Shown: positions 61,281-63,939 of the stretch, piece by piece | How positions within the stretch are numbered: the stretch's first letter is position 1 | How the letters are laid out: every line of letters begins with the position of its first letter | Source of the DNA: Euglena gracilis | Taxonomy: Eukaryota | DNA length: 64,000 nt | NCBI GenBank assembly: GCA_039621445.1 | Contig: CP154954.1 | Location: 38,363,703 to 38,427,702 of the forward strand | Reading direction: 5' to 3' | Translations under genes and position numbers: made by a program | The notes under the pieces: generated by a model | What the model was told of the DNA's origin: nothing | The model's input: only the letters and a program-made list of their open reading frames with translations | Databases searched by the model: none

Positions 61281-62580
61281 CCCTTGTTACTCCCTGTGCC
61301 GCCACACGTCGCGGGTTGTTTATACTCTGGGTGTAATGTACAAAAGAGTGCTGAGTGATACTTGTTCAGGGTGCGGAGGTTAGTGGTTAGAGGAAGATGA
61401 GCAAAGGTCACCTTCAATATATTGGGCGGGGAGGGGGCGTTTGTACCTCTTTTGAAACGGGATGGCGTGTTTGTGTCGGGTTTTTGGCTGTTGTGTGTTT
61501 TGCTTCTCTCCGCGTCTTTGTGATCCGTTGATATGTTTTTGGCTCGGCGTGTGGCTCTGCTCAAGGGGTTACTAGGGGTTACTGAGTTGTGCCTTCTTTG
61601 CTCATTTTGTAATCTGAACTTGGGGTGTAAACGGCAGGTGAGAGGTCAATGTTGGTGATTTTTGTTGAGAGCTCAAAGGCCTTCAGACAGAATATGGTGA
61701 GTGGGCGGAAGACAGGGTGATCTCATATTTGGAAGAATACAAGCTCCGAACGAGCTATCTGCTGATTTCTCTCATTAGAGTGAAGGAAGGCCTTGCCAAA
61801 TGCCTGCTTCCGCGGCCGATGTCACCCTTCCCGCTGCCCCAAAAGGGCCTTGAGGAGGGTGGCCATCAAGGAGCGCGCTTCCTGTCGCATGCCCCCGTAG
61901 CAATCCATGACAAATGCCCTTTTTTGCTCTCAAATCTCCTCCAACGGTGGTGGGCCGACTTTTTTTTTAAAAACTTGCTGGACCCAAGCGTTTCACTTTC
62001 TCGGATGTGGAGCTACACTCCGCCAGGGGGCATTAGCCCTAGGGTTCGAGGCACTCGAAGTCCTCCATCCCTTGCCTCAGCTCCTGATGCTTGGCGATGG
62101 CGTGCTTGATAGGGGTTGCTTGTCTTTGGTGTCACTGCTCGGCCGAAGCCGCAATGGTTTAATCGTGACACGTCAGGTGGGCAAACGCCGTTGAATCTAT
62201 GGTTCGCCGGCCCTTACCCATCAGGCACGCCAGGGTCGAGCCTCTGGTTGCTGATTTCTACCTCGGCGCCATCGGAACTTCCCGCCATACGGCAACCATT
62301 CCTTACCCCGCCTGGCAGCGCCGTATGCCATGGCTGGTTCAAATCCCGTGCACCCCCGGATCGGAGTTTAGCTCATCGGGACTCGAAGCCGCGCGTCCAG
62401 AAGATGGTACCGATCGAAGCCGGCCCTCGGGATGTAAATTTGTGATGCTGGCGCCATGTCAACGTCCTCACCCGCCACCGACGGGGGCTCTGCGGGCGGT
62501 GGTGCAGCAGGAGGGATGGACATTTGTGATGCTGGCGCCATGTCAATATCCTCACACGGAACAAATGGTGGGTCTGTAGG

Positions 62581-62619
62581 AGGTCCGGGGTTACTTTCAA
62601 TGTCCCCGCAGCTGAGTAA
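62581..62619 (-). other. 2A-like (StopGo) peptide LLSCGDIESNPG/P
   Basis: Exact match to D(V/I)ExNPG-P with the typical upstream LLxxG context, in ORF 62368..62736. Confidence 0.85.
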
Positions 62620-63939
62620 AGACCGTCCTCGGCCCGCTCCCCCCGATGCTGCCAGTGTGAAAGATCCGGGCAGCATGCCCACAATGGCAATTGCTGGCAT
62701 GCAGATGGCAGCTTCCGCAACACTGGCATTCTTCAACCTTCAGAACACAGAACTTACACACCCAGCAGACTTTGCATAATCTCCCCTTTGAATTTGCCAG
62801 GCACTTGGGACACCCAATCCCAGGGGACTTTCCCAATTCTTCTTCCCCTTGGCGCGCAGCATAAGCCAAATGCACAAATACAGCAGAACACTCCTTCAAG
62901 TCCAGTCCACAGCGCCACGCAAACAAGTCATGGGATTTGCCCTACCAGCAAAATGAATTAGGAACTTGTCTGCTGGAAATCCTTAATTCACCAATCTGTA
63001 ATGCCACATGTTGTAATGCCACAGGCTGGCATGCCAAAAGTTGCTGTGCAGCAAGGCCACTCACACTCCCCTCTCCGGGCGAGCTTTGCTGGGTCCAACT
63101 CCCAACAAAGCGAGTCAAAAAATTAAAAAGTGGCCTTGGTTGCAGTCACACCCATAAAATAAAAAAATAGAAATTTTAAATACGGTTCGAAGTGTTGCAC
63201 CTGTCTTGGGGCAAAGCTCCCTCAGGTGGACACTCCTACAGCAAACACACAGGCAGGCTGCAGAGGAAGGGCACCCACACCCCCTTGGAACCTCCTCCCC
63301 TGATGACCTCTTCTTTTTCAGGGGAAGACATCCCAAAGATGCCCCTTGGACCATCATGGGTGGAAACCTACCCTTCCACCCAAAATGGCCCAGAGAGTTG
63401 GGTGGGGTCCCAAGCAGGGGGTGAAATGGGCAAACTGGGGCATTTAAATTCTAGTTAATTTGGTCAACCGCGGCTCACCACAACCCACTGTCGAGCCATT
63501 TAATGAGATTTCCACCCAGCAAACACCCACCGCGGCATGGCCACATGCCCTCAGCGGCCATCTCCCACAGACATGTGTAATTTATTGGGTTTACTGCCCC
63601 AGAATTGGCCACAGACACAGCACGCGGCATGCCACAAACATCAGCCAAATACCTCGAATCTGACCTGTCCAGCTTGCCATTACTTCCCCTTCACTTTCTT
63701 CCTCCTCTCTCTTCTTCCCCTTGTTCTGGCTTTTCCTTCTGTCTGCACCCCCTTGTCGCACATCTCGATTGCATGTCTGAATTTGGAATCTCCATGTCCA
63801 AAATTGTCTTCAACACTTCTGTCCGAAACCTTCCCATGACCAAATCTGGCATTGCAATCTTCAGCATGACTGCCCAGATCATGCACTTTCTGAGCATCTT
63901 GGGCAGAGAACTTGTTTGTACAGGCTGGACTGACTTGTT

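Follow-up and report, generated by a model that had tools for sequence, protein, structure and literature searches.

A 2A peptide segment in Euglena gracilis DNA as a probable relic of R2-like retroelements with several 2A peptides

What is the origin of a solitary 2A (StopGo) peptide motif that lies upstream of, and on the same strand as, a retrotransposon with a restriction-like endonuclease (RLE)? The question is raised by a 64,000-nucleotide (64 kb) stretch of Euglena gracilis DNA (GenBank assembly GCA_039621445.1, contig CP154954.1, positions 38,363,703 to 38,427,702, forward strand), here called the window. A prediction made from the sequence alone had joined the 2A motif, a Cys/His-rich frame preceding it and the reverse transcriptase (RT) and RLE region following it into a single polyprotein. 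The analysis presented here leads to a different answer. The 2A segment is likely to be the N-terminal relic of a family of RLE-type, R2-like non-long terminal repeat (non-LTR) elements with multiple 2A peptides, and the adjacent RT-RLE copy is likely to be a separate insertion.

The 2A peptide core GRGRSLLSCGDIESNPGP is encoded on the minus strand, with the NPGP codons at 62581-62592. Its final residues, DIESNPGP (62581-62604), correspond to the C-terminal motif D(V/I)ExNPG/P of 2A peptides, in which the slash stands for the Gly-Pro bond. The string LLSCGDIESNPGP is located in a stop-to-stop open reading frame (ORF) of 123 codons that reads ...GAGRGRSLLSCGDIESNPGPPTDPPFVPCEDIDMAPASQ...EDVDMAPASQ.... 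In a six-frame translation of the window, there is a single NPGP and a single D.E.NPGP, and both are this site. The pattern D[VI]E.NPGP occurred in 0 of 300 first-order Markov simulations of the window, compared to a mean of 6.1 per simulation for plain NPGP. What the original prediction had said about the 2A sequence itself thus holds in all points, and the duplicated EDxDMAPASQ motif that it had noticed behind the 2A is explained by an 84-nt tandem duplication (62429-62500 and 62513-62584), the source of both copies.

According to the available text of Odon 2013 (PMC3708506), 2A activity needs a suitable tract of 10-14 residues before the motif. In the window this tract, GRGRSLLSCG, agrees with the consensus of 21 related multi-2A proteins, a conservation which suggests that the tract may be functional. 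The ORF stops 70 codons past NPGP, and no long downstream protein follows in frame in the window; a long in-frame ORF after the 2A is present in relatives, for example in the proteins that we call P0045, P0050 and P0053. Self-BLAST of positions 58000-64000 against the window did not find a second copy of either the 2A or the RT.

The affiliation of the 2A segment emerges from an exhaustive HMMER search, in which the 123-aa ORF was compared with 1.84 billion representative proteins at a cut-off of E<=1e-3. The search returned 24 matches, the best with E=1.2e-12. In 21 of them, the pattern (G)RG..LLSCGD[VI]E.NPGP occurs two to five times; the remaining ones, P0020, P0030 and P0034, contain no such peptide and have the appearance of low-complexity matches. 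The likeness continues past the 2A into the sequence that follows it, with 60% over 38 aa in P0015, and with EDVDMAPSA behind the last 2A of P0050, as in the window. Several of the 24 proteins run on into a C2H2 zinc finger, and P0021, P0027 and P0028 extend into sequence homologous to the RT fragment of the window. The flanks of the motif therefore match a retroelement family, and the proposed tie between the 2A and a retrotransposon is borne out.

Longer members of this family were collected with P0012, an RT-RLE protein with 37% identity to the window ORF that had served as query, and 29 proteins were obtained. At least one 2A-like motif precedes the RT in the same ORF in 13 of these, including all of the top 11, and the strict D[VI]E.NPGP pattern is found in 11 of the 13. 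The C-terminal endonuclease pattern CCHC..RH..RP[AG]D is present in 12 of the 13, and P0046 has a variant of it, as judged by eye. Seven of the 13 carry an NPPF motif between 2A peptides, and a small module GPSG..CxxC..H..C..H.TGRG often stands directly before a 2A in the relatives. Pfam searches on eight relatives identified RVT_1 in six (E 1e-10 to 6e-13) and Dam in five, two of the latter above the curated cut-off. The apurinic/apyrimidinic endonuclease (APE) domain, Exo_endo_phos, was found by Pfam in none of these eight, and in none of the 13 2A-bearing relatives according to the precomputed Pfam column, where PF03372 is listed for the insect protein P0070 alone among the 29. Pfam on the window ORFs likewise detected no APE domain near the 2A.

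Because 13 relatives pair 2A and RT in one ORF and 12 of them show the RLE pattern, 2A peptides occur in RLE-type non-LTR elements. The family-level link, which is drawn from protein sequences, is supported, as is the general idea of 2A peptides in RLE-type elements with which the original prediction had set out, and it appears undescribed in the literature. As read from the predicted proteins, there exists a family ORF with the order leader, 2A, Dam-like methyltransferase, 2A, small module, 2A, and zinc finger-RT-endonuclease. The Dam-like N6-adenine methyltransferase (NPPF, PF05869) lies between 2A peptides in P0037, P0044-P0047, P0049, P0050 and P0053, that is in relatives and not in the window. 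The more distant RT-RLE-like proteins P0058, P0062 and P0063 are fused to deubiquitinase domains, OTU (PF02338) and UCH (PF00443), according to precomputed Pfam annotation. A scan of prokaryotic genome contigs with P0041 found no relative.

The RT-RLE copy beside the 2A segment was delimited by tblastn with the full-length relatives P0041 (1176 aa) and P0042 (1178 aa) as queries. Window positions 61080 to 58610 on the minus strand align to residues ~326-1176 of P0041 in five segments, in frames -2/-3/-1/-2/-1 and hence with four frame changes. The four C-terminal segments are 57-66% identical to the relatives and the first one 45%, and the copy contains at least eight in-frame stops. The beginning of the alignment at residue ~326, the frame changes and the in-frame stops identify the copy as 5'-truncated and decayed, with ~265 residues of the zinc-finger/N-terminal domain missing. 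At its other end, the stop codon at 58607-58609 is followed by a 135-nt 3' tail. The window pieces are 63% identical to the RT of the relatives, and a window ORF on its own matches RVT_1 with E=0.021. The RT-RLE homology begins at ~61086-61098, so that the RT region does lie ~1.5 kb downstream of the 2A on the same strand, as had been predicted.

The neighbour had also been called an RT with an RLE, and rightly so. In the endonuclease ORF, residues C54, C57, H60 and C64 (CCHC), R72 and H73, E94, RPAD at 102-105 and D120 are invariant across 18 sequences. An AlphaFold model of this ORF has a mean predicted local distance difference test (pLDDT) score of 66.5, with residues 1-71 disordered and residues 72-207 mostly above 75 in blocks of ten residues. 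When this model was compared with the PDB by Foldseek, the top six matches were R2 retrotransposon structures (E 3.3e-4 to 2.8e-2), with restriction enzymes and Holliday-junction resolvases ranking next; the template modelling (TM) scores of the R2 matches are modest (0.34-0.37), partly owing to the 71 disordered residues. A family profile searched against the PDB also placed R2 proteins first (3.9e-18), with LINE-1 ORF2p behind them, and a single-sequence phmmer search of the PDB with P0041 gave 0 matches. Judged by the sequence profile and the predicted endonuclease fold, the RT-RLE element is R2-like and of the RLE type. The lack of an APE domain is read from the relatives, the window copy being without its N-terminal third. 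Two spliced-leader motifs, one of dinoflagellates and one of Euglena, had 0 matches in the window, and Rfam and tRNA scans of the window returned nothing relevant, with no RNA gene by Rfam.

The ends of the RT-RLE copy are informative. It is flanked by A9GAGCC and otherwise unrelated sequence, and the 14-nt direct repeat AAAAAAAAAGAGCC is exact. Apart from this pair, the window has no exact copy; if one mismatch is tolerated, the count rises to five, whereas 0.19 would be expected per shuffle. The upstream copy abuts the first homologous codons, and the downstream copy is located 135 nt past the stop codon. The pair resembles a target-site duplication, and the 5'-truncated insertion between the two copies extends from 61086 to 58472. 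Truncation at residue ~326 and the 14-nt repeat are both marks of target-primed reverse transcription, and the evidence for it is good, although not conclusive in view of the A-rich repeat. Because the exact direct repeat flanks it, we read the RT-RLE copy as an independent insertion. Sequence from 61101 onward would then have been joined to sequence up to 58457 before the insertion took place, and the 2A segment would therefore have lain in flanking DNA, outside the RT-RLE element. The foreign sequence that the original prediction had placed from 61093 coincides with the junction at 61087-61100.

Other data agree with two separate pieces. No zinc-finger/N-terminal family domain was detected between 62368 and 61101. 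When 72 fetched proteins were compared with the window by tblastn, only two of 174 high-scoring segment pairs fell outside both pieces, and both were mere overhangs. In the lineage to which the RT itself belongs (P0001-P0011 and P0038-P0043), NPGP is found in 0 of 17 proteins. The intervening DNA contains two ~85-nt tandem units (61113-61184 and 61198-61268, 88-92% identical) directly before the A9GAGCC repeat in the 5' to 3' direction of the minus strand; another retroposed sequence might have left them as its 3' end.

On its other side, the 2A segment is preceded by a Cys/His-rich ORF of 114 codons. Its register and that of the 2A differ by a single base, and the minus strand has a G6 run at 62639-62644, exactly as had been described. 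The proposed fusion of the two frames, by contrast, would need a frameshift, and no resemblance of the Cys-rich ORF to the family was found. A search of proteins 62-200 aa in length yielded no homologue, none of the 72 fetched proteins matched the ORF in phmmer with an E-value below 0.8 (the repeat copy at the window end reached E=0.15 at best), and a profile of the inter-2A module, built from 17 segments and run against 1579 six-frame pieces, did not match the Cys-rich ORF and had its best match anywhere at E=0.12. Part of the Cys-rich sequence belongs to an exact 61-nt direct repeat, the second copy of which (63940-64000) is cut by the window end. Identity between the copies stops at 62656/63940, directly 5' (minus strand) of the 2A-specific sequence, and from there the second copy continues on the minus strand into unrelated sequence without a 2A. 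Because the 61-nt repeat ends at this point and its second copy diverges, the point where the Cys-rich frame gives way to the 2A looks like a breakpoint rather than a coding joint, and the suggested fusion is not supported.

Several other explanations of the 2A segment have to be weighed against a relic of the multi-2A family. In a window this rich in repeats, and with an ORF of merely 123 codons, the motif could be a chance product of non-coding DNA. This is effectively refuted by the absence of the eight-residue motif from the simulations and by an 18-residue match to the family consensus which, together with the similarity of the flanks, stands out from 1.8 billion proteins. It could also derive from integrated RNA-virus sequence, or be one exon of a polyprotein gene of the host, as the ORF is short and carries no attached RT, and as a supplement table (PMC12338488) assigns the very same 13-residue core to an unclassified RNA virus and to a protein of Ixodes. 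We regard this as very unlikely, since the likeness reaches into the flanks (the GRG prefix and a Pro/acidic EDVDMAP linker as in P0015 and P0050), since 21 of the 24 database matches are multi-2A family proteins and three of these reach the homologous RT, and since Pfam identifies no viral domain in the surrounding ORFs. There remains the single element of the original prediction, a Cys-rich/2A/RT-RLE polyprotein that would have been split later by foreign sequence and a frameshift. The pieces are indeed on the same strand and in the correct order, relatives do place 2A peptides before RT-RLE in one ORF, the frames differ by a single base at the G6 run, and the N-terminus of P0042 may contain a degenerate 2A, as judged by eye. 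These points are outweighed by the RT copy, which is decayed, begins at residue ~326 and has a 14-nt repeat of its own at both ends, by the 1.27 kb of DNA without family homology between the pieces, by the absence of NPGP from the 17 proteins of the closest RT lineage, and by a Cys-rich ORF that has no homologues among the proteins compared, does not match the inter-2A module and shares its sequence with a repeat that lacks a 2A behind its second copy. A polyprotein of this kind at the locus is thus unlikely.

The preferred explanation, a 2A relic next to an independent RT-RLE insertion, has difficulties of its own. Non-LTR elements normally lose their 5' ends, and a fragment that consists of the 5' part only needs an extra, unexplained deletion or rearrangement. 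The 13-residue core that is shared with an RNA-virus polyprotein and an Ixodes protein (PMC12338488) does not by itself prove a retroelement origin. The relatives are predicted proteins on transcript-sized or metagenome contigs, and some may be chimeric assemblies. The repeat around the RT-RLE copy is mostly an A9 run, and part of the repeat may stem from a poly(A) tail or match by chance instead of being a target-site duplication. Placed beside P0052, the N-terminus of P0042, a full-length member of the lineage of the RT, resembles a degenerate 2A to the eye, so that the two lineages may not differ in having 2A peptides. An old, rearranged single element retains some small probability.

How might the family use its 2A peptides? 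Its ORF carries one to five of them before the zinc finger, the RT and the RLE, and in many members the stretches between the 2A peptides also encode a small CxxC..H..C module and a methyltransferase of the Dam-like kind. By analogy with known 2A peptides, the Gly-Pro bond of every NPG/P would be left unformed by the ribosome, which would free the upstream chain and go on. One frame could then yield separate products, namely the leader, the methyltransferase, the small module and the zinc finger-RT-RLE protein, and with an N-terminal 2A the RT protein would come free of whatever had been translated before it. At the locus, the window would have kept the last 2A and the ~70 codons after it (62368-62655) as an orphan of ~290 nt, which is probably non-functional. 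The RT-RLE copy would stem from a related lineage, one in which no 2A is seen, and would have arrived by target-primed reverse transcription with a 14-nt duplication and decayed later. Both pieces are best read as dead fragments, and their adjacency as a coincidence in a repeat-rich region. More tentatively, the window 2A could be the fossil of an undescribed RLE-type class with a virus-like multi-2A polyprotein (leader, Dam-like protein, zinc module and zinc finger-RT-RLE protein). In that case 2A recoding would extend beyond the APE lineages and would perhaps be ancestral, and the lineage of the RT copy would keep a degenerate trace of it.

Table 1. Coordinates of the 2A segment, the RT-RLE copy and the sequences around them (positions in the window)
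Feature	Position	Strand	Remarks
2A peptide core GRGRSLLSCGDIESNPGP	62581..62634	-	Unique motif; like the 2A of 21/24 database matches
123-codon ORF with 2A and ~70 codons of Pro/acidic linker	62368..62739	-	Likely orphan 5' remnant of a 2A-bearing retroelement
84-nt tandem duplication with two EDxDMAPASQ	62429..62584	-	Units 79% identical
Decayed, 5'-truncated RT-RLE copy	58472..61086	-	tblastn to P0041 residues ~326-1176
ORF with CCHC and PD-(D/E)xK-type restriction-like endonuclease	58690..59313	-	Invariant residues, AlphaFold, Foldseek
AAAAAAAAAGAGCC, upstream copy, putative target-site duplication	61087..61100	-	Exact 14-nt match
AAAAAAAAAGAGCC, downstream copy, putative target-site duplication	58458..58471	-	Exact 14-nt match
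1.27 kb between 2A remnant and RT copy	61101..62367	-	No homology to the family; two ~85-nt tandem units
Cys/His-rich frame, 114 codons	62597..62941	-	Not supported as part of the element
61-nt repeat, copy 1	62656..62716		Exact direct repeat
61-nt repeat, copy 2	63940..64000		Exact direct repeat, at the window end

The window is very rich in repeats. A satellite array with a unit of ~198 bp covers ~16 kb (30738-46710), with up to 42 copies per row of Tandem Repeats Finder output and 84-95% matches, and related units of 195-203 bp are present from 32.7 kb onward. A 29-bp minisatellite with the unit AAGCAAATGGCCGCTGGCGTGGCCGAAGC occupies 17239-20171, with ~50 copies in its main block; it accounts for the long ORFs in multiple frames in this interval and for the strong AT skew at 18-20 kb. 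Telomere-like repeats, (AGGGTT)n and degenerate forms of it, lie in interstitial positions at 22926-23040 and 23380-23456. Downstream of the RT-RLE insertion, a unit of ~58-63 nt (TTGTGCTTCGCCCTCGG...CCTTCCTCC) occurs in direct and inverted copies at 56463-56815 and 57605-57667 and is possibly a small dispersed repeat. Pfam searches with 12 local ORFs and with 147 of the 161 ORFs in the window that reach 130 aa or more gave only weak RVT_1, PDZ and LRAT matches. The PDZ match (PF17820, E=1.9e-5, below the curated cut-off) belongs to the plus-strand ORF at 54292-54831 and is the sole hint of a host gene in the window. ARAGORN called a tRNA-Pyl (anticodon CTA) at 8964-9041 on the minus strand, where Rfam has no tRNA at the gathering threshold, and the call is probably a false positive.

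Among known retrotransposons, the APE-type L1Tc/ingi elements of trypanosomes reportedly contain 2A-like peptides, which Heras is said to have described in 2006. In animals, such peptides occur in the APE-type CR1, L2, Rex1 and Crack elements, and the available text of Odon 2013 (PMC3708506) reports retrotransposon 2A in APE-type elements only, the type to which it has so far been tied. As far as these accounts go, APE-type 2A elements resemble the family described here in having D(V/I)ExNPGP near the N-terminus of a single long ORF, before the enzymatic domains, and the presumed role, release of the RT protein from upstream translation, is the same. They differ in combining an N-terminal APE with a single 2A, whereas the family has a C-terminal RLE, no APE and often two to five 2A peptides. 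In the part of PMC13405545 at hand, 2A peptides are placed in ORF2p-like RT proteins, mostly with APE, including the Dualen/RandI clade, and an OTU-ORF2p fusion is mentioned that the deubiquitinase fusions of P0058, P0062 and P0063 recall. In the literature that we searched, neither 2A peptides nor Dam-like domains are described for the RLE-type clades (R2, NeSL, CRE/SLACS, R4, Hero), and a search that paired 2A peptides with restriction-like endonucleases found no paper. The available text of PMC12338488 catalogues 2A peptides in TSAR protists including dinoflagellates. In its supplement table, RDLLSCGDIESNPGP, as in P0015, is assigned to an unclassified UniParc entry, and the commonest strings of the family, LLSCGDVEANPGP, LLSCGDVESNPGP, LLTCGDVEANPGP and LLSCGDIEANPGP, are absent.

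For the window itself the result is modest. At the level of the family, if the assignment is correct, StopGo recoding would extend to the older branch of non-LTR elements, the one with an R2-like restriction-type endonuclease, and a cellular mobile element would use a polyprotein strategy in the style of picornaviruses. Picornavirus polyproteins with multiple 2A-NPGP, as described in the accessible part of PMC11512398, are similar in that several StopGo peptides divide the product of one ORF into separate proteins while it is being translated; they differ in that they belong to RNA-virus genomes rather than to a cellular retrotransposon, and in their unrelated flanking domains. Co-expression tools might also profit from the family as a natural reservoir of varied 2A peptides.

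The Dam-like module between the 2A peptides would be a non-LTR addition to Dam elements of the DIRS and LTR types, in which Dam domains are reported by the available portion of a preprint (bioRxiv 10.64898/2026.05.21.726589). Those elements, too, have a prokaryote-type N6-adenine methyltransferase (NPPF/Y, PF05869) within a retrotransposon ORF. In the family, in contrast, the Dam domain is located between the 2A peptides of an RLE-type non-LTR ORF, and this applies to the relatives, not to the window. SymbioLINE-Dnmt is of the APE type according to the text available from PMC5890265.

Among the closest known systems are the RLE-type elements R2, NeSL, CRE/SLACS, R4 and Hero. Unlike in these clades, the insertion site in the window is A-rich and is not an identified rRNA or spliced-leader gene. 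As in the family, a single ORF encodes an RT with a CCHC motif and a PD-(D/E)xK-type nuclease behind it, an N-terminal C2H2 zinc finger is shared with the relatives P0041 and P0042, and 5' truncation and a putative flanking duplication are also seen at the copy in the window. R2 provides the nearest PDB matches, both by sequence profile and by fold.

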